Shown here: positions 8,987 to 52,174 of the stretch, piece by piece | Layout: every line of letters starts with the position of its first letter | How positions within the stretch are numbered: the stretch's first letter is position 1 | Assembly: GCF_057098645.1 (NCBI RefSeq) | Contig: NZ_CM169472.1 | DNA length: 64,000 bases | Direction: 5' to 3' (one strand) | Notes under the pieces: model-generated | Seen by the model: only the letters and a program-made list of their open reading frames with translations | Told to the model about the DNA's origin: nothing | Databases searched by the model: none | Position numbers and translations under genes: made by a program

Positions 8987-9969
8987 TTCCTGATTATTTA
9001 ACTTTTATTCGCTTTCAGGATAAACGAAATCTGATATACATTTATGCTATTGGACTTATTCTGATAGGCTTTTATTGGAAAAATGCAGGGTTTACTTTTC
9101 CATCAGAGGATATTGGTGTAGTTAGTGGGATTCTGGCCCTGGTGCTGTATAATTTTATTTTTGATCTCAAGGCGTACTGGGCTTATAAATGCGTCACGAA
9201 GAATATCGATTTTTCGTGGTTTAAGAAAAAGCAGAACCACAAAATAGAATTATTTCTTACACAACCTCTGGTGGCAGGATTTCTGTCGTTAATCATGTTG
9301 AGTGCAATGAGTTGGGGGCTATACCAGCTTCTACCCTCGTTATATGCGCTGTTCCTGATTTCGTTACTTGGGCCGTTGGTCATCTTTCTGTTGTTTCGGA
9401 TGATCCGCACCAGTTATGTCAAGCAGGTCGCTATTTCAGTAGCGAAAAAAGTAAAATATAAAAGTCTGACTCGCTATGTGCTGCTTTCGGTGTGTATCTC
9501 AACGGTTGTTAACCTGCTTACTATCAGCCCGTTGCGTAACAGTGATTCTTTTGTGACAGAGGGGCAGTGGTTAACGTTTAAATCGATAATTGCATTGCTC
9601 ATTCTTTGTGGCGTAGTGTTGGCGATTAATCTATTTTTTCTGCGCTTCTCCAAGCGGTACGCTTTTCTGGGCAGGCTTTTTTTGCAGGAAATCGATCTGT
9701 TTTTCTCCAGTGAAAATGCGTTGTCGACCTTTTTTGCCAAGCCGCTTTGGCTTCGGTTATTCATATTGCTGGTTATTGAAGTGATGTGGATTACGCTGGT
9801 GTCGGTATTGGCAACGCTTGTGGAATGGCGGATTTGGTTTGAAGCCTATTTTTTACTCTGCTATGTACCGTGCTTAATTTACTATTTTTTCCATTGTCGG
9901 TTCCTCTGGCATAACGATTTTATGATGGCATGTGACATGTATTTCCGTTGGGGGCATTTTAATAAGTGA
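8983..9969 (+). CDS. ycdU: Polytopic inner-membrane protein YcdU
   Basis: 328 aa, multiple hydrophobic helices; ATGA overlap with the acyltransferase gene; position upstream of serX. Confidence 0.75.
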
Positions 9970-10120
9970 GGAAGTTACAGAAAGTGACCAGATAGCGCAT
10001 ATATGTTCTGTACTCTCTTGCGCATTTTGATTGTTGACTGAGCAATCAGACAGTTGATGTGCACGATTTCCCCTCGCCCTAACAGACGTGGGCGGGGGCT
10101 CCCGATGTGTGCAATATACG

Positions 10121-10148
10121 AAAAAAAAGCCCGTACTTTCGTACGGGC
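10121..10148 (-). terminator. Rho-independent terminator downstream of serX
   Basis: Plus strand A8 then GCCCGTAC-TTTC-GTACGGGC; on the minus strand this is a hairpin followed by a U-run just past the tRNA 3' end. Confidence 0.7.
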
Positions 10149-10161
10149 TCTTCTTTAAATA

Positions 10162-10249
10162 TGGCGGTGAGGGGGGGATTCGAACCCCCGATACGTTGCC
10201 GTATACACACTTTCCAGGCGTGCTCCTTCAGCCACTCGGACACCTCACC
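10162..10249 (-). tRNA. serX: tRNA-Ser (anticodon GGA), 88 nt with long variable arm and encoded CCA
   Basis: Reverse complement reads GGTGAGGTGTCCGAGTGGCTGAAGGAGCACGCCTGGAAAGTGTG...GGTTCGAATCCCCCCCTCACCGCCA; T-arm GGTTCGAATCC present. Confidence 0.9.
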
Positions 10250-15794: not shown

Positions 15795-16547
15795 GATGAA
15801 ACCCCGCTTTTTTTATTGATTGCACACCTGACAGCTGCCTCTAAAATAGAAGCACCAGAAGTACTGACAGATGTTGCACTGCTGTGTGTAGTAATAAATC
15901 AGCCCTAAATGGGTAAAATATAAAACTAATGGATTACATCTGATTTCAATCTAGCCATTACAAATCTTAAATCAAGTGTTAAACATGTAACTAAATGTAA
16001 CTCGTTATATTAAAATGTTAACATTAAGGTTCTATTAAGTTTAGAAATGATAGAAAAGTTGTACATTTGGTTTTTATTGCACAATTTTAAAAAATCATAC
16101 AAATGGTGATAACTTACTAATAATGCATATAAAAAATATTTCGGTGTAGTCCTTTCGTCATGTAAAACGTTCTTTTTTTTTCTCCACACCTCCGTGGACA
16201 ATTTTTTACTGCAAAAAGACGAGGTTTGTCACGGCTTGTGCGCAAGACATATCGCAGCAATCAGCGACGGGCAAGAAGAATGATTGTCTGGTGATTTTTG
16301 ATTGCGGAAAACCGAAATTTAAAAGAAAACAAAATATTTTTTGCGTAGATAACAACGTATTTACGTGGGTTTTAATACTTTGGTATGAACAAAAAAAGAA
16401 AAATACAACGCGCGGGTGAGTTATTAAAAATATTTCCGCAGACATACTTTCCATCGTAACGCAGCGTTAACAAAATACAGGTTGCGTTAACAACCAAGTT
16501 GAAATGATTTAATTTCTTAAATGTACGACCAGGTCCAGGGTGACAAC
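15795..16547. promoter_or_regulatory. csgD-csgB divergent intergenic regulatory region (~750 bp, AT-rich)
   Basis: Long AT-rich non-coding gap between divergent csgDEFG and csgBAC; only short spurious ORFs inside. Confidence 0.85.
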
Positions 16548-26013: not shown

Positions 26014-26113
26014 GCCTGATGCGCTACGCTTATCAGGCCTACATCGTTCCTGCAATTTATTGATTTTGCAAGATTTTGTAGGTTGGGTAAGGCGTTCACG
26101 TCGCATCTGGCAA
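26014..26113. repeat. RIP/BIME element: two REP palindromes flanking an IHF-type spacer
   Basis: GCCTGATGCGCTACGCTTATCAGGCCTAC ... CAATTTATTGATTTTGCAAG ... GTAGGTTGGGTAAGGCGTTCACGTCGCATCTGGCA. Confidence 0.8.
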
Positions 26114-31076: not shown

Positions 31077-31553
31077 TTATACTCCATAGTCAGATGACGA
31101 CTTTCCCAGCATGCGCTTCAGAGTGTCGTCTTTATCGATGAAATGATGCTTCAGGGCCATAAATCCGTGCATAACGGACAGTACTACGACGCTCCACGCG
31201 AGCCAAAAATGCAGGGCACCGGCAAAGTCTGCCTGTGCGCCAGCGTCGGCAAGGGTCGCGGGGACGTCAAACCAGCCAAAAACGCTGATCGGTTTACCAT
31301 CGGCAGTTGAGATCAGATAGCCGCTGATGCCGATGGCGAACAGCAATAGGTACAATGCGAGATGTCCAGCTTTTGCGGCAAGACGAGTCATGGGCGAATA
31401 ACTCGGCAGCGGACCCGGCGGTGGAGATATGACGCGCCACAGAACGCGAATAACCAGCCCCATCATTAACAAAATACCGATGCTTTTATGCAGTTCGGGT
31501 GCTTTGTGATACCAGCCATCGTAATAACTGAGCGTGACCATCCACAGACCTAA
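31077..31553 (-). pseudogene. yceJ: yceJ (cytochrome b561 homologue) 3' fragment, separated from its 5' end by IS5
   Basis: Annotated ORF 31077..31643 takes its first 30 codons from inside the IS; authentic yceJ sequence begins at the CTAA duplication (31550-31553). Confidence 0.8.
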
Positions 31554-32749
<1,196 letters not shown>

Positions 32750-32753
32750 CTAA

Positions 32754-36407: not shown

Positions 36408-36458
36408 TAATCTCTATGCTCCGGCTGAAGGGATGTTTTTGCCGGACACAAAGGATAA

Positions 36459-41551: not shown

Positions 41552-43174
<1,623 letters not shown>

Positions 43175-43213
43175 CAATGCATTCCGGCCTGCAGTGCAGG
43201 CCGGAGATAATCT

Positions 43214-43630
43214 TCAGATCGAAATCTTTTTACTGCCGCGATGGGTTGTTGAGGTCTGACCGTTCGCCCCATATAGCGTCGGTTCCTGATGCGGTTTCAA
43301 CATTTCCAGCGCCTGTTGATTGCGCTCAATCTGTCCTTCCAGTAACCAGCCGTTATGTTGATTCATTTGGCGTAGTTGCTGCGTTTTCACAGCAATTTCC
43401 TGCCAGCGTTGACTAATATCAACGCTATTTGCTGTATTGGGTTCTTTCCTGCGTAACTGTTCGAGGTAATCCAACGTTGCCAGCAGTGAGCTTTTTTGTT
43501 CTGTAATCCATTGCAACTGGCTGCCGTTGATCTGCCCCATAGAGAGATGTTGCTGCTCTTGATCCATTACCGTTTTGAGATCGTTAAGCACAGCGGACAT
43601 CTGGTCGAGGATCTCTGCAAGACGCGTCAT
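43214..43630 (-). CDS. flgN: Flagellar chaperone FlgN
   Basis: 138 aa; recognised. Confidence 0.92.
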   Translation of the reverse strand: MTRLAEILDQMSAVLNDLKTVMDQEQQHLSMGQINGSQLQWITEQKSSLLATLDYLEQLRRKEPNTANSVDISQRWQEIAVKTQQLRQMNQHNGWLLEGQIERNQQALEMLKPHQEPTLYGANGQTSTTHRGSKKISI

Positions 43631-43634
43631 ACGA

Positions 43635-43928
43635 TTAATTACTCTGCAAGTCTTGCTGCGCTTCGTTGATCAGCGCATCGGCAATTTTGCCGGTGTCCAT
43701 TTTTAGTTCACCGTTACGAATCGCCAGTTTTAACGCTTCGACACGTTCAAGATTGATATCACTGCTGCCGGGTTGCATCAGTTTTGCTTGCGCGTCGCTT
43801 AACGTCACACTGGTGCTGGTGGATGCTGTTGTTTTTGCCGCCCGGGTGTTCGTTACCGGCGCGTCAGTGGTTTCGCGCGGTTGAACGGTGCTTACGGGCT
43901 TCAGAGGCGAAGTGCGATCAATACTCAT
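43635..43928 (-). CDS. flgM: Anti-sigma-28 factor FlgM
   Basis: 97 aa; recognised. Confidence 0.93.
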
Positions 43929-43971
43929 GGTTTATTCCTCATTGAGGGCGCTTTTATCATGTGTTGCTTAT

Positions 43972-43998
43972 TTATCGGCAAGGGACGGGTAATCTTTA
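43972..43998 (-). promoter_or_regulatory. Sigma-28 (FliA) class 3 promoter for flgMN, within the flgA 3' region
   Basis: On the minus strand TAAAGATT - 11 nt - GCCGATAA, matching TAAAGTTT-N11-GCCGATAA, ~45 nt upstream of the flgM start. Confidence 0.7.
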
Positions 43999-44003
43999 AC
44001 AGC

Positions 44004-44663
44004 TTACAGGTTTATAAGAATATTCCCATCTGCATCAACAACGCCGCTGACTACCTGTCCAGATACCATGCGCACCCGCGCATTCTGTGCGACGGCTGCA
44101 TTGTTCAGCGCCTGACCTTCAGCGTTGGCGCTAAACCCATCACCGCTGGCGATCACATTGACGCGTTGTCCCGCTTTTACCCGCCATGCCTGGCGAAACT
44201 GGGTTAACTGGATAGGTTGATCGGGTGATAGATCGCGCAGGCTAACGGCATCAACAAGTTGATTGATATCCAGCACCGTACGCGGTGGCAGGGTATCCAG
44301 CCGTCCGCGTTTTAGTTTGACATTGCCAGCTTCCAGCTTTCCTCCCCGCACAATGGGCATCGCGGCAACCACATAATTTCCTGTGGCCTGCACATTAACC
44401 TGTAAATATCGTTTGTCGTTACCGCAGCGTGCCAACACATTCACATTGCCCCACAGGCGGGAATTATTGCTCATCGAAAGCAATGGCTGCTCGCACGGCG
44501 GTAGTAGATTGGGCGCTGTACGAATAGAAACACGAACCTCATCACTTATCCCTGCGAGCTGGGAGCTAAAAAAGGTTTGCAATTGCGATGTGAGATTGCT
44601 CGCCGCACTTAACGGACTGAACAGTATCGCGATGATCGCCACGCTACGTTTTATTGCCAGCAT
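44004..44663 (-). CDS. flgA: Flagellar P-ring assembly chaperone FlgA
   Basis: 219 aa; recognised. Confidence 0.92.
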   Translation of the reverse strand: MLAIKRSVAIIAILFSPLSAASNLTSQLQTFFSSQLAGISDEVRVSIRTAPNLLPPCEQPLLSMSNNSRLWGNVNVLARCGNDKRYLQVNVQATGNYVVAAMPIVRGGKLEAGNVKLKRGRLDTLPPRTVLDINQLVDAVSLRDLSPDQPIQLTQFRQAWRVKAGQRVNVIASGDGFSANAEGQALNNAAVAQNARVRMVSGQVVSGVVDADGNILINL

Positions 44664-44817
44664 TTTCGCCCCCAGCCATTTCTACAACGTGAATTGTACC
44701 TGTCCGCAATGACCATCAACGGCATAAATAGCGACCCATTTTGCGTTTATTCCGCCGATAACGCGCGCGTAAAGGCATTTAAGCTGATGGCAGAATTTTG
44801 ATACCTGCGGAGGAGAT
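44664..44817. promoter_or_regulatory. flgA-flgB divergent class 2 promoter region
   Basis: 154-bp intergenic region between divergent flgAMN and flgBCDEFGHIJ; FlhDC dependence is established knowledge, no box called. Confidence 0.7.
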
Positions 44818-45234
44818 ATGCTCGATAAGCTCGACGCCGCCTTACGTTTTCAACAAGAGGCGCTCAATCTGCGCGCCCAGCGTCAGGAAGTGCTGGCAGC
44901 AAACATCGCCAATGCCGATACCCCTGGTTATCAGGCGCGCGATATCGATTTTGCCAGTGAACTTAAAAAAGTCATGCAACGTGGACGGGATGCAACCAGT
45001 GTGGTTGCTCTGACGATGACCTCAACGCAACACATTCCGGCGCAGGCGCTGACGCCTCCTACCGCAGAACTGCAATACCGTATTCCGGACCAGCCTTCGC
45101 TTGACGGTAATACCGTCGATATGGATCGCGAACGCACCCAGTTTGCCGATAACAGCCTGCAATACCAGATGAGCCTTAGTGCGTTGAGCGGGCAAATCAA
45201 AGGCATGATGAACGTTTTACAGAGCGGAAATTAA
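44818..45234 (+). CDS. flgB: Flagellar basal-body rod protein FlgB
   Basis: 138 aa. Confidence 0.93.
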
Positions 45235-45237
45235 CGG

Positions 45238-45642
45238 ATGGCACTGCTGAATATTTTTGATATCGCCGGATCGGCGTTAACTGCCCAGTCCCAGCGCCTG
45301 AACGTGGCGGCCAGTAATCTGGCGAATGCTGATAGCGTGACCGGTCCCGATGGACAGCCATATCGGGCAAAACAGGTGGTATTTCAGGTTAACGCTGCAC
45401 CAGGTGCTGCGACAGGCGGCGTAAAGGTTGCCGATGTTATAGAAAGTCAGGCCCCGGACAAACTGGTTTATGAACCGGGTAATCCGCTGGCGGATGCAAA
45501 GGGCTACGTAAAAATGCCGAACGTTGATGTTGTCGGAGAGATGGTTAACACCATGTCGGCGTCACGCAGCTATCAGGCCAATGTTGAAGTGCTCAACACG
45601 GTGAAAAGCATGATGCTGAAAACCCTTACGCTCGGTCAATAA
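45238..45642 (+). CDS. flgC: Flagellar basal-body rod protein FlgC
   Basis: 134 aa. Confidence 0.93.
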
Positions 45643-45653
45643 AGGAGAAAGCT

Positions 45654-46349
45654 ATGTCCATTGCGGTAACCACCACCGATCCGACAAATACCGGCGTCAG
45701 TACCACCAGCAGTAGTTCGCTCACGGGCAGCAACGCCGCAGATTTACAAAGCAGTTTTCTGACTTTGTTGGTGGCGCAGCTGAAAAACCAGGACCCGACC
45801 AATCCAATGGAAAACAACGAGCTGACGTCGCAATTGGCACAAATCAGCACGGTCAGCGGGATTGAAAAACTCAATACCACGCTCGGATCTATTTCCGGAC
45901 AGATTGATAACAGCCAGTCGTTACAGGCCAGTAACCTGATCGGTCACGGCGTGATGATCCCCGGCACCACTGTTCTTGCGGGAACCGGCAGTGAAGAAGG
46001 GGCTGTGACCACGACCACGCCGTTTGGTGTTGAGCTGCAACAGGCGGCAGACAAAGTTACGGCCACCATCACCGATAAAAATGGCGCGGTTGTGCGCACC
46101 ATTGATATTGGTGAACTGACCGCCGGAGTCCACAGTTTCACCTGGGACGGTACGTTGACTGACGGCAGCACTGCGCCGAACGGTTCTTACAACGTAGCGA
46201 TTAGCGCCAGTAACGGTGGTACACAACTGGTTGCCCAGCCGCTGCAGTTTGCTCTGGTGCAGGGTGTGATCCGCGGCAACAACGGTAATACGCTGGATCT
46301 CGGCACTTACGGCACCACCACCCTCGACGAAGTACGGCAGATAATTTAA
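45654..46349 (+). CDS. flgD: Flagellar hook capping protein FlgD
   Basis: 231 aa. Confidence 0.92.
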   Translation: MSIAVTTTDPTNTGVSTTSSSSLTGSNAADLQSSFLTLLVAQLKNQDPTNPMENNELTSQLAQISTVSGIEKLNTTLGSISGQIDNSQSLQASNLIGHGVMIPGTTVLAGTGSEEGAVTTTTPFGVELQQAADKVTATITDKNGAVVRTIDIGELTAGVHSFTWDGTLTDGSTAPNGSYNVAISASNGGTQLVAQPLQFALVQGVIRGNNGNTLDLGTYGTTTLDEVRQII

Positions 46350-46373
46350 GCCTTCACATTTCAGGAGTCAGTC

Positions 46374-47579
46374 ATGGCCTTTTCTCAAGCGGTTAGCGGA
46401 TTAAACGCTGCCGCCACCAACCTCGATGTTATTGGCAACAATATCGCCAACTCCGCCACCTACGGCTTTAAATCAGGCACGGCCTCTTTTGCCGATATGT
46501 TTGCCGGTTCGAAAGTGGGACTGGGGGTAAAAGTTGCCGGTATCACTCAGGACTTTACCGATGGCACGACCACCAACACCGGGCGTGGTCTGGACGTTGC
46601 TATCAGCCAGAACGGTTTTTTCCGTCTGGTAGATAGCAACGGTGCGGTGTTCTACAGCCGTAACGGACAATTTAAGCTGGATGAAAATCGTAACCTGGTG
46701 AATATGCAAGGTTTACAGCTGACGGGTTACCCGGCAACCGGTACGCCGCCGACTATTCAGCAAGGGGCGAATCCGACTAACATTTCGATCCCGAATACCC
46801 TGATGGCAGCGAAAACTACCACCACGGCGTCGATGCAGATCAACCTGAATTCCAGCGATCCGCTTCCCTCTGTTAACGCATTTGATGCCAGCAATGCGGA
46901 TAGCTATAACAAAAAAGGTTCGGTGACTGTTTTCGACAGTCAGGGTAATGCTCATGACATGAGCGTGTACTTTGTGAAGACCGGGGATAATAACTGGCAG
47001 GTCTACACCCAGGATAGCAGTGATCCAACAGGCACAGCTGACCATGCAATGACGCTGGTGTTTAATGCCAATGGCGTTCTGACGTCAAATCCAACAGAGA
47101 ATATTACAACTGGCGCAATTAACGGCGCAGAACCCGCCACGTTTAGCCTGAGCTTCCTCAACTCCATGCAGCAAAATACCGGCGCTAACAACATTGTGGC
47201 AACCACCCAGAATGGCTACAAACCGGGCGATCTGGTGAGTTATCAAATCAATGATGACGGTACGGTTGTCGGCAACTATTCCAACGAACAAACCCAACTG
47301 CTGGGGCAGATTGTACTGGCGAACTTTGCCAACAACGAAGGTCTGGCATCCGAAGGCGGCAACGTCTGGTCTGCGACGCAATCTTCTGGCGTGGCGCTGT
47401 TGGGGACAGCCGGGACGGGCAACTTTGGCACCCTGACCAACGGTGCGTTGGAAGCGTCCAACGTCGATCTCAGTAAAGAACTGGTCAATATGATCGTTGC
47501 CCAGCGTAACTATCAGTCTAACGCCCAGACCATCAAAACCCAGGACCAGATCCTCAACACGCTGGTTAACTTACGCTAA
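46374..47579 (+). CDS. flgE: Flagellar hook protein FlgE
   Basis: 401 aa; conserved N- and C-termini. Confidence 0.93.
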   Translation: MAFSQAVSGLNAAATNLDVIGNNIANSATYGFKSGTASFADMFAGSKVGLGVKVAGITQDFTDGTTTNTGRGLDVAISQNGFFRLVDSNGAVFYSRNGQFKLDENRNLVNMQGLQLTGYPATGTPPTIQQGANPTNISIPNTLMAAKTTTTASMQINLNSSDPLPSVNAFDASNADSYNKKGSVTVFDSQGNAHDMSVYFVKTGDNNWQVYTQDSSDPTGTADHAMTLVFNANGVLTSNPTENITTGAINGAEPATFSLSFLNSMQQNTGANNIVATTQNGYKPGDLVSYQINDDGTVVGNYSNEQTQLLGQIVLANFANNEGLASEGGNVWSATQSSGVALLGTAGTGNFGTLTNGALEASNVDLSKELVNMIVAQRNYQSNAQTIKTQDQILNTLVNLR

Positions 47580-47598
47580 TCGCTGACGGGATAGCTCA

Positions 47599-48354
47599 AT
47601 GGATCACGCAATTTATACCGCGATGGGAGCAGCCAGCCAGACGCTGAATCAACAGGCGGTAACCGCCAGTAATCTGGCCAATGCCTCTACGCCCGGTTTT
47701 CGCGCGCAGTTAAACGCCTTGCGCGCAGTGCCGGTGGAAGGGCTTTCACTGCCCACGCGCACGCTGGTAACGGCGTCAACACCGGGTGCAGACATGACGC
47801 CCGGCAAGATGGATTACACCTCGCGCCCGCTGGACGTTGCATTGCAGCAGGATGGCTGGCTGGCCGTGCAGACCGCTGACGGCAGCGAAGGGTATACGCG
47901 TAATGGCAGCATTCAGGTTGATCCCACCGGACAACTGACAATTCAGGGGCATCCGGTGATAGGCGAGGCGGGGCCAATTGCTGTGCCGGAAGGGGCGGAA
48001 ATCACTATTGCTGCCGATGGCACAATCTCGGCGCTGAATCCGGGCGATCCGGCAAACACGGTTGCGCCAGTAGGGCGTCTTAAACTGGTGAAAGCCACGG
48101 GCAGCGAAGTGCAGCGCGGTGACGACGGCATTTTTCGTTTAAGCGCAGAAACCCAGGCCACGCGTGGGCCGGTACTGCAGGCAGATCCAACCTTGCGTGT
48201 GATGTCGGGTGTTCTGGAAGGCAGTAATGTCAATACCGTTGCGGCAATGAGCGACATGATTGCCAGCGCGCGGCGTTTTGAAATGCAGATGAAGGTGATC
48301 AGCAGCGTCGATGATAACGCAGGCCGTGCCAACCAACTGCTGTCGATGAGTTAA
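47599..48354 (+). CDS. flgF: Flagellar proximal rod protein FlgF
   Basis: 251 aa. Confidence 0.92.
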   Translation: MDHAIYTAMGAASQTLNQQAVTASNLANASTPGFRAQLNALRAVPVEGLSLPTRTLVTASTPGADMTPGKMDYTSRPLDVALQQDGWLAVQTADGSEGYTRNGSIQVDPTGQLTIQGHPVIGEAGPIAVPEGAEITIAADGTISALNPGDPANTVAPVGRLKLVKATGSEVQRGDDGIFRLSAETQATRGPVLQADPTLRVMSGVLEGSNVNTVAAMSDMIASARRFEMQMKVISSVDDNAGRANQLLSMS

Positions 48355-48380
48355 TTGAAAGGATACATGACAAGTATAAG

Positions 48381-48481
<101 letters not shown>

Positions 48482-48507
48482 AGAAAACATATGCACTTTG
48501 TCACTAA

Positions 48508-49308
<801 letters not shown>

Positions 49309-49360
49309 GGCATAATCGGTGGCAGGTTCACCGGTTTATTGATTTTTGAAGATGATAGCC

Positions 49361-50059
49361 ATGCAAAAAAACGCTGCGCATACTTATGCCATTTCCAGCT
49401 TGTTGGTGCTTTCACTAACCGGCTGCGCCTGGATACCCTCCACGCCGCTGGTGCAGGGGGCGACCAGTGCACAACCGGTTCCCGGTCCGACGCCCGTCGC
49501 CAACGGTTCTATTTTCCAGTCTGCTCAGCCGATTAACTATGGCTATCAACCGCTGTTTGAAGATCGTCGACCACGCAATATTGGCGATACGCTGACCATC
49601 GTGTTGCAGGAGAACGTCAGCGCCAGCAAAAGCTCCTCTGCGAATGCCAGCCGTGACGGTAAAACTAATTTTGGCTTTGATACTGTGCCGCGCTATTTGC
49701 AGGGGCTGTTTGGTAACGCTCGTGCCGATGTCGAAGCCTCCGGTGGTAACACGTTCAACGGAAAGGGCGGGGCCAATGCCAGCAATACCTTTAGCGGCAC
49801 GTTGACGGTGACGGTTGACCAGGTACTGGTCAACGGCAACCTGCATGTGGTGGGTGAAAAACAGATTGCCATTAATCAGGGTACCGAATTTATTCGCTTC
49901 TCTGGCGTGGTTAATCCACGCACCATCAGCGGCAGCAATACCGTACCGTCTACTCAGGTGGCGGATGCGCGCATTGAATACGTAGGCAATGGCTACATTA
50001 ACGAAGCGCAAAATATGGGCTGGTTGCAGCGTTTCTTCCTTAACCTGTCGCCAATGTAA
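49361..50059 (+). CDS. flgH: Flagellar L-ring lipoprotein FlgH
   Basis: ATG 49361 ([22 protein letters not shown] lipobox); 232 aa. Confidence 0.92.
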
Positions 50060-50070
50060 GTGAGGCTGTG

Positions 50071-51168
50071 GTGATTAAATTTCTCTCTGCATTAATTCTT
50101 CTACTGGTTACGACGGCGGCTCAGGCTGAGCGTATTCGCGATCTCACCAGTGTTCAGGGGGTAAGGCAAAACTCACTGATTGGCTATGGTCTGGTGGTGG
50201 GGCTGGATGGCACCGGTGACCAGACAACCCAGACGCCGTTTACCACACAAACGCTTAATAACATGCTCTCACAGCTGGGAATTACCGTTCCGACGGGCAC
50301 CAATATGCAGCTAAAAAACGTCGCTGCGGTAATGGTGACAGCGTCACTTCCTCCGTTTGGACGTCAGGGGCAAACCATCGACGTGGTGGTTTCTTCCATG
50401 GGTAATGCCAAAAGCTTGCGTGGAGGTACGTTGTTGATGACTCCGCTTAAGGGCGTTGACAGTCAGGTGTATGCGCTGGCGCAGGGCAATATTCTGGTTG
50501 GCGGCGCAGGAGCCTCCGCTGGCGGTAGCAGTGTTCAGGTGAACCAATTGAACGGTGGACGGATCACCAATGGTGCGGTTATTGAACGTGAATTACCCAG
50601 CCAGTTTGGCGTCGGGAATACCCTTAATTTGCAACTTAACGACGAAGATTTCAGCATGGCGCAGCAAATCGCTGACACCATCAACCGCGTGCGTGGATAT
50701 GGCAGCGCCACCGCGTTAGATGCGCGGACTATTCAGGTGCGCGTACCAAGTGGCAACAGTTCCCAAGTCCGTTTCCTTGCCGATATCCAGAATATGCAGG
50801 TTAATGTCACCCCGCAGGACGCTAAAGTAGTGATTAACTCGCGCACCGGTTCGGTGGTGATGAATCGCGAAGTGACCCTCGACAGCTGCGCGGTAGCGCA
50901 GGGGAATCTCTCAGTTACAGTCAATCGTCAGGCCAATGTCAGCCAGCCAGATACACCGTTTGGTGGTGGACAGACTGTGGTTACTCCACAAACGCAGATC
51001 GATTTACGCCAGAGCGGCGGTTCGCTGCAAAGCGTACGTTCCAGCGCCAGCCTCAATAACGTGGTGCGTGCGCTCAATGCGCTGGGCGCTACGCCGATGG
51101 ATCTGATGTCTATTTTGCAATCAATGCAAAGTGCGGGATGTCTGCGGGCAAAACTGGAAATCATCTGA
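50071..51168 (+). CDS. flgI: Flagellar P-ring protein FlgI
   Basis: GTG 50071 ([19 protein letters not shown]) with TGAGG 5 nt upstream; GTG 50068 is an alternative start. Confidence 0.9.
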
Positions 51169-52109
51169 TGATCAGCGACAGCAAACTACTGGCAAGTGCG
51201 GCCTGGGATGCGCAATCACTCAACGAACTAAAGGCGAAAGCGAGCGAAGATCCGGCGGCAAATATCCGTCCGGTGGCCCGTCAGGTGGAAGGGATGTTCG
51301 TGCAGATGATGTTGAAAAGCATGCGCGACGCTTTACCAAAAGATGGCCTGTTCAGCAGCGAGCACACTCGCCTGTATACCAGTATGTATGACCAGCAGAT
51401 TGCCCAACAGATGACGGCGGGCAAAGGTCTGGGGCTTGCAGAGATGATGGTTAAGCAGATGACGCCAGAACAACCATTGCCAGAGGAGTCCACGCCAGCA
51501 GCACCGATGAAATTCCCGCTCGAAACCGTGGTGCGTTATCAAAATCAGGCGCTTTCGCAGCTGGTGCAAAAGGCCGTGCCACGTAACTACGATGATTCGC
51601 TGCCAGGTGACAGTAAAGCATTCCTCGCGCAACTCTCGCTGCCCGCCCAACTGGCAAGCCAGCAAAGCGGTGTGCCACATCATTTGATCCTCGCTCAGGC
51701 GGCGCTGGAATCTGGCTGGGGGCAACGGCAAATCCGCCGCGAAAACGGCGAGCCGAGCTATAACCTGTTTGGTGTCAAAGCCTCTGGCAACTGGAAAGGG
51801 CCAGTCACTGAAATCACCACGACTGAATATGAAAATGGCGAAGCGAAGAAAGTAAAAGCGAAGTTTCGGGTCTACAGCTCGTATCTGGAAGCATTGTCGG
51901 ATTACGTTGGGCTGTTAACACGTAACCCGCGCTACGCCGCCGTGACGACCGCCGCGAGTGCGGAGCAGGGGGCGCAGGCCCTACAGGACGCGGGCTATGC
52001 CACCGATCCTCACTATGCCCGTAAACTCACCAACATGATTCAGCAGATGAAATCGATAAGCGACAAGGTGAGCAAAACCTACAGTATGAACATTGATAAT
52101 CTGTTCTGA
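51168..52109 (+). CDS. flgJ: Flagellar rod assembly protein / peptidoglycan hydrolase FlgJ
   Basis: ATG 51168 ([14 protein letters not shown]) overlapping flgI stop by 1 nt; 313 aa. Confidence 0.92.
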   Translation: MISDSKLLASAAWDAQSLNELKAKASEDPAANIRPVARQVEGMFVQMMLKSMRDALPKDGLFSSEHTRLYTSMYDQQIAQQMTAGKGLGLAEMMVKQMTPEQPLPEESTPAAPMKFPLETVVRYQNQALSQLVQKAVPRNYDDSLPGDSKAFLAQLSLPAQLASQQSGVPHHLILAQAALESGWGQRQIRRENGEPSYNLFGVKASGNWKGPVTEITTTEYENGEAKKVKAKFRVYSSYLEALSDYVGLLTRNPRYAAVTTAASAEQGAQALQDAGYATDPHYARKLTNMIQQMKSISDKVSKTYSMNIDNLF

Positions 52110-52114
52110 ATAAC

Positions 52115-52141
52115 TCAAGTCCGGCGGGGCGCTGCCGATAA
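52115..52141 (+). promoter_or_regulatory. Sigma-28 class 3 promoter for flgKL
   Basis: Strong -10 GCCGATAA at 52134-52141; weaker -35-like TCAAGTCC 11 nt upstream; ~35 nt before the flgK ATG. Confidence 0.55.
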
Positions 52142-52174
52142 TACTCTGTAATTGAAGGCTTATAAGGAACCTCC

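Follow-up and report, generated by a model that had tools for sequence, protein, structure and literature searches.

We are very nearly certain that the motif at 43972-43998 on the minus strand is the class 3, FliA-dependent promoter of flgMN, acting together with read-through from flgA and in feedback on FliA, and that the motif at 52115-52141 on the plus strand has the same role for flgKL. Our reading of the flgM promoter is based on its motif, its position, its identity with the Escherichia coli K-12 sequence, its conservation, and the lack of a terminator-like site. FliA binding, FliA-driven expression, and read-through at the two sites are presumed from the K-12 literature, and the strain itself was studied through its sequence. 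The sigma-28 promoters of flgMN and flgKL and their dual class 2 and class 3 control are textbook knowledge, both sites are included in genome-wide maps of K-12, and nothing in this respect is new here. What was gained is a correction, namely that the flgM promoter is intergenic and not embedded in flgA.

The whole 64-kb stretch of DNA that was analysed, called the window below, is a segment of the E. coli chromosome. The region around flgA-flgM was matched in 5,425 of the 5,426 complete E. coli genomes, and 1.2 kb around the site showed 100% identity to O145:H28 strains, which are the closest complete genomes. Strain RM9872 differed from positions 34000-54200 at 3 of 20,201 bases. Gene names were taken from the RefSeq annotation of RM9872, moved by a fixed offset, and used only where the alignment holds; the left part of the window is not collinear with this strain. 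This transfer placed murJ at 41639-43174 (+) and flgB to flgJ at 44818-52109 (+). The list of open reading frames and RefSeq together placed flgN, encoding the export chaperone for FlgK and FlgL and co-transcribed with flgM, at 43214-43630 (-), and flgM, encoding the anti-sigma-28 factor of 97 amino acids, at 43635-43928 (-). The same two sources gave flgK (52175-53818, +) and flgL (53830-54783, +), which together form the flgKL operon (52175-54783) served by the second promoter. The limits of flgA (219 amino acids; 44004-44663, -) were taken from the list of open reading frames, the RM9872 annotation, the K-12 gene limits, and direct reading of the stop codon.

Some features of the window outside the flagellar genes were also recorded. 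Positions 1-10155 did not align to RM9872, in which a cah / dynamin-family / CP4-like island lies beside tRNA-Ser. A tRNA is present in the window at 10165-10249 (-) and, therefore, the island content at this tRNA varies among close relatives. An insertion of about 1.2 kb at ~31551-32752, which we take to be IS5 from its repeat sequence and sizes, has 19-nt terminal inverted repeats (TAAGGAAGGTGCGAATAAG / CTTGTTCGCACCTTCCCTA) and an open reading frame of 326 amino acids at 31701-32681 (-). This IS5-like element is missing from the otherwise near-identical RM9872; coordinate transfer puts it near the 5' end of yceJ, which it interrupts. Five Rfam families were matched at the gathering score: the RNase E 5' UTR element rne5 (58189-58525, -), the SraB sRNA (60387-60555, +), the PyrC leader (36408-36457, -), and the sRNAs ES056 (15850-15941, -) and ES036 (26035-26077, -). 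All five are as expected in this region of E. coli.

The flgM site consists of a sigma-28 -35 element, TAAAGATT, at 43998-43991 (-), an 11-nt spacer, ACCCGTCCCTT, at 43990-43980 (-), and a -10 element, GCCGATAA, at 43979-43972 (-). The -35 element agrees with TAAAGTTT at 7 of 8 bases and the -10 element is perfect (8/8), giving 15 of 16 positions and one mismatch against the consensus TAAAGTTT-N11-GCCGATAA. The original prediction of a near-consensus FliA promoter, TAAAGATT-N11-GCCGATAA, on the minus strand was thus exact in its coordinates. No other match with fewer than three mismatches to the consensus was found in the 64-kb window, and 0.0015 matches with at most one mismatch are expected by chance per window (analytic, both strands). 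A weight matrix was also built from 23 K-12 FliA ChIP-seq sites with FAT >4, from which the flgM and flgK sites were left out against circularity. With this matrix the flgM site scored 27.5 bits, a value close to the highest among the training sites (9.0-28.8). The best scores in 30 simulated windows were 14.6 +/- 1.7 bits and did not exceed 18.6. From the end of the -10 element it is 43 nt to the flgM ATG, on the sense strand and in a 75-bp spacer. The site therefore has what marks a sigma-28 class 3 promoter: both elements with an 11-nt gap, an above-chance match, a sense-strand position, and conservation.

Extra FliA promoters at 46052 (flgD, 18.0 bits), 31602 (in the IS5-like element, 15.1 bits), 4826, 57847, and 3108 were considered and rejected, as their scores fall within the null range or close to it and they are not among the K-12 ChIP-seq sites. 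The first of these, CAAAGTTA-N11-ACCGATAA at 46052-46079 (+), is the second-best matrix match in the window, at the upper edge of the null. It is in sense orientation within the flgB operon, and the equivalent K-12 position has no FliA ChIP-seq site.

Both promoters have been described in K-12. In the study of Fitzgerald, Bonocora and Wade (PLoS Genet 2014; PMC4183435), TAAAGATTACCCGTCCCTTGCCGATAAA is the FliA ChIP-seq site of flgMN, with a FAT of 48, and TCAAGTCCGGCGGGTCGCTGCCGATAAT is that of flgKL, with a FAT of 47 (their Table 2). The flgM 28-mer in the window is the same as the K-12 28-mer, and the flgK 28-mer is off by one spacer base. RpoF holoenzyme by itself also selected both places in vitro, with gSELEX peaks of 15.0 for the flgM-flgA spacer and 27.2 for the flgJ-flgK spacer (Shimada et al., PLoS One 2017; PMC5493296). 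The transcription start can be placed from the flgM fusion of Romilly et al. (RNA Biol 2020; PMC7549644), which runs from +1 to 105 and ends after the first 23 codons. Since 105 - 69 leaves a leader of 36 nt, +1 would be at 43964 (-). This description, mapped on the identical sequence of the window, gives a putative start at an A, 7 nt after the -10 octamer, and a 5' UTR of 36 nt.

In the mechanism that we propose, FliA-RNA polymerase would recognise TAAAGATT (-35) and GCCGATAA (-10), 11 nt apart, and begin transcription about 7 nt downstream, at ~43964, to give an flgMN mRNA with the 36-nt leader. Both flgM and flgN would also be carried on a longer flgAMN transcript from an FlhDC-activated, sigma-70 class 2 promoter upstream of flgA, with read-through from flgA into flgM because no terminator lies between the two genes. 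The class 2 transcript would allow FlgM to be made before FliA is active. After FlgM is exported through the finished hook-basal body, it would be made again under FliA from the class 3 promoter, as a negative feedback on FliA. The supply of FlgN would coincide with the synthesis of its clients, FlgK and FlgL, which have a class 3 promoter of their own. For flgKL, which follows the class 2 flgB-J operon, the site at 52115-52141 (+) would have the role that the flgM site has for flgMN.

Scans of the sense strand for terminators found no terminator-like site between flgA and flgM (43000-44900) or between flgJ and flgK (51800-52400). With no terminator before the class 3 promoter, flgAMN/flgMN and flgB-J/flgKL both have the layout of overlapping class 2 and class 3 operons. 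Sigma-70 scans at the flgA-flgM and flgJ-flgK junctions gave nothing on the relevant strands to alter this picture. When the class 3 leader and early coding RNA (43890-43964, -) was folded, it was no more stable than shuffled sequences (z = 0.95). In K-12, read-through across flgJ-flgK was shown by RT-PCR, and overexpression of FliA in delta-flhD cells regained the expression of flgM and flgK and not that of flgA (PMC4183435). The dual expression of flgMN that had been predicted, by class 2 read-through and from a class 3 promoter, is thus supported by the K-12 literature and by the terminator scan.

It is a serious possibility, although in our judgment a somewhat improbable one, that FliA does bind this genuine promoter, yet that the promoter matters little physiologically. 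The bulk of FlgM and FlgN would then come from class 2 read-through, and class 3 expression would serve filament repair, swarming, or fine FliA feedback. Several published data favor this. In K-12, flgM RNA was 451 in the wild type and 318 in delta-fliA, which was not a significant change, while the drop without FlhDC was more than 100-fold, with flgAMN RNA going from 319 to 3 in delta-flhD (PMC4183435). The same authors saw very little FliA-dependent contribution to dual-regulated transcripts under their conditions, and Salmonella work, as it is cited in their article, proposes functions in swarming and in the repair of sheared flagella. The share of the class 3 promoter in steady-state flgM RNA thus appears small in K-12 under the published conditions. 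On the other hand, the strict conservation of both elements in about 20 genera speaks for functional selection. Furthermore, a minor role concerns the magnitude of the effect and does not give the site another identity, and the site would still be the class 3 promoter of flgMN.

The flgM site may not be the only source of FliA-dependent transcription. In a recent article (NAR 2026; PMC12781870), additional sigma-28 promoters, flgAP2 and flgBP2, are reported in the flgA-flgB spacer, with flgBP2 activated by MarA. Therefore, FliA-dependent expression of flgM need not come from the flgM site alone, and FliA-dependent flgAMN transcription may also start upstream of flgA. In the window, the flgA-flgB spacer holds two divergent, weak sigma-28-like sites with a common -35 block (44715-44762). 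One is CCCATTTT-N11-GCCGATAA at 44735-44762 (+), which scored 11.2 bits and points towards flgB. The other is AAAATGGG-N11-GCCGTTGA at 44715-44742 (-), which scored 8.4 bits and points towards flgA. This layout fits the description of flgBP2 and flgAP2 in that article, and the two sites would probably correspond to them.

The position of the flgM promoter differs from what had been predicted. The original prediction put it inside the 3' end of flgA. The motif (43998-43972) does not overlap flgA, which ends with a TAA codon at 44006-44004, and the -35 element begins 5 nt past this stop. Therefore, the whole core promoter sits in the 75-bp flgA-flgM intergenic region (43929-44003, -), together with the 5' UTR. 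This region is 100% identical to that of K-12 MG1655, and with its flanks 96 of 96 positions agree. The K-12 gene limits are also as in the window (NC_000913.3: flgM 1129835-1130128, flgA 1130204-1130863). An intragenic FliA promoter has its core -35 and -10 elements inside an annotated CDS; here, in K-12, and in 78 of 78 related genomes the core is wholly intergenic.

An intragenic promoter that constrains the codons of flgA can hence hardly be what this site is. The idea draws on the closeness of the -35 element to the flgA stop, as the upstream edge of the polymerase footprint, at about -40 to -55, would cover the A+T-rich last codons (...AATATTCTTATAAACCTG TAA), and on the fact that 30 of the 52 FliA sites in E. 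coli are intragenic (PMC4183435). It is that upstream edge alone that would extend into flgA. The coordinates show no overlap and the RefSeq annotations concur. In addition, the alignment of the FlgA homologues extends to residue 219 in 78 of 78 cases, with the promoter 5, 6, 26, or 114 nt past the stop. Intragenic sites stand in parentheses in the table of PMC4183435, and the flgMN site, like the flgKL site, stands there without them; the gSELEX peak was likewise assigned to the spacer (PMC5493296). Our full-text literature search found no statement placing the flgM class 3 promoter 'within the flgA' gene. Because the site is intergenic, a change of GCCGATAA to GCCGGCAA at 43972-43979 alters no codon.

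Conservation of the intergenic flgM promoter was examined by scanning one genome per species with FlgM, which gave 80 loci from about 20 genera of Enterobacteriaceae, 78 of them containing both flgA and flgM. In all 78, the best matrix match in the 200 nt upstream of flgM scored 19.9-28.2 bits, was located at one of the four distances from the flgA stop given above, and overlapped the gene in none. Even the lowest score in this 200-nt search was above the best chance match in 128,000 positions. The first five bases of the -35 element, TAAAG, and the GCCGAT of the -10 element were invariant in 79 of 79 sequences, and the spacer differed among genera. Among the 66 distinct sequences, the information content was 1.80 bits per column for the -35 octamer, 1.82 for the -10 octamer, 0.95 for the spacer, and about 0.85 for the flanks. 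The profile was aligned on the best matrix match of each locus, so the conservation of the motif columns is somewhat inflated. It is the typical footprint expected of two separately recognised elements, as judged from the alignment. The flgA-flgM spacer of Atlantibacter (loci L073-L075) is 200 bp.

For the flgK site, seven longer loci were compared (Salmonella, Enterobacter, Citrobacter, Kosakonia-type, Atlantibacter, Cedecea, and Buttiauxella). All seven had TCAAGT(C/T/G)(C/T)-N11-GCCGATA(A/C) in the flgJ-flgK spacer, and in six the site was 5-7 nt past the flgJ stop. The presence of TCAAGT in all of them indicates that the non-consensus -35 element is itself conserved. The exception in distance was Buttiauxella, with a spacer of 272 bp. 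In Buttiauxella gaviniae (L088:1651-1922), this spacer, compared to 64-76 bp elsewhere, has a palindromic, repeat-like insert between the flgJ stop and the conserved flgK promoter.

A class 3 promoter starting 5-7 nt past the stop of the upstream class 2 gene was found at flgA-flgM in 65 of 78 loci, and at flgJ-flgK in the window as well as in those six of the seven other genera. We think it unlikely that this conserved abutment is functionally constrained rather than mere compaction. If it were, the last codons of flgA and flgJ might act as an upstream (alpha-CTD / UP-like) part of the promoter, or read-through polymerases or terminating ribosomes might modulate class 3 firing as a timing device.

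The site at 52115-52141 (+) is the published FliA promoter of flgKL. Its -35 element, TCAAGTCC, is at 52115-52122 (+), 5 nt past the flgJ stop (TGA, 52107-52109), and agrees with the consensus at 5 of 8 bases. Its -10 element, GCCGATAA, is at 52134-52141 (+) and agrees at 8 of 8. The elements are 11 nt apart, and 33 nt separate the end of the -10 element from the flgK ATG (52175), on the sense strand of the 65-bp flgJ-flgK spacer. A weaker FliA-like site with a strong -10 at 52134-52141, after flgJ and ahead of flgK, had been predicted. The place and the -10 element were right, and "weaker" is true of the match to the consensus only; it is not true of binding (FAT of 47 compared to 48; gSELEX peak of 27.2 compared to 15.0). 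The original prediction thus located both true FliA promoters to the base from the sequence alone.

With three mismatches, the flgK site scored 15.8 bits, compared to a best of 14.6 +/- 1.7 bits in the simulated windows, and 0.43-0.48 matches with at most three mismatches are expected per window. By sequence this is within the range of chance, so the significance of the flgK site comes from its position and conservation. That the flgM and flgK motifs, and the latter above all, are chance resemblances without promoter function is nevertheless extremely improbable. This score and the 8 occurrences of GCCGATAA by itself in the window speak for it. Against it, the flgM site scores far above chance, with hardly any such match expected, and each of the two motifs has sense orientation in a short spacer that immediately precedes an operon of the known FliA regulon. 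Both are also conserved across genera, and K-12 data on their binding, in vivo as well as in vitro, and on expression have been published.

Other observations concern the flagellar regulon in the window. The flgF-flgG spacer (48355-48525) is 171 bp, unusually long for the flgB operon, and contains a REP-like palindrome, GCCGGATAAGGCGTTTACGCCGCATCCGGC. A weak RpoF gSELEX peak of 6.7 has been reported in the flgF-flgG spacer (PMC5493296), and no FliA matrix match above 3.4 bits was found at 48355-48525. Directly after flgL, in its 3' UTR (54784 to ~54860), there is a stem-loop followed by a T-run (GCCTGC...GCGGGCATTTTTTT). FlgO is a sigma-28-dependent, Hfq-bound sRNA processed from the flgL 3' UTR (eLife 2023; PMC10578931), and this stem-loop is its expected source; no Rfam family matched this part of the window. 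A novel FlhDC binding site has also been described inside csgC, just upstream of the ymdA start site, at K-12 position 1104400 (PMC4183435). By coordinate transfer its equivalent is at ~17780, where it would be a second flagellar-regulon feature in the window.

The closest known counterpart of the flgM promoter is flgMp of E. coli K-12 (motif centre 1129409, NC_000913.2; Fitzgerald et al. 2014), in which the 28-mer TAAAGATTACCCGTCCCTTGCCGATAAA, the 75-bp spacer, the flanking genes, and the distances are all the same. There is no sequence difference, and only the strain background, with O145:H28 genomes as the closest, is another. K-12 flgKp (motif centre 1137556) has the same -35 element, TCAAGTCC, the same -10 element, GCCGATAAT, and the same position between flgJ and flgK, and differs in one spacer base (GGGGCG in the window, GGGTCG in K-12). 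The E. coli intragenic FliA promoters, which make up 30 of the 52 ChIP-seq sites and include the one inside flhC for motAB-cheAW, use the same sigma factor and motif. Like the flgM site, they serve a downstream gene and adjoin an upstream gene on the same strand, but they are in coding sequence, whereas the flgM site is 5 nt past a stop codon.

Salmonella has the same architecture of overlapping flgAMN/flgMN and flgB-J/flgKL operons, according to refs 56 and 57 as they are cited in PMC4183435 and to our comparison of the loci. The flgM site of Salmonella enterica subsp. arizonae and diarizonae reads TAAAGATT-N11-GCCGATGA, 5 nt past the flgA stop, and the flgK site of the Salmonella locus is TCAAGTCC-N11-GCCGATAA, 5 nt past the flgJ stop. 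The flgA-flgM region of Salmonella is about 16-18 nt longer (91-93 nt compared to 75 nt) owing to a longer leader. The spacer sequences also differ from those of the window, and the flgM -10 octamer ends in GA, not AA.
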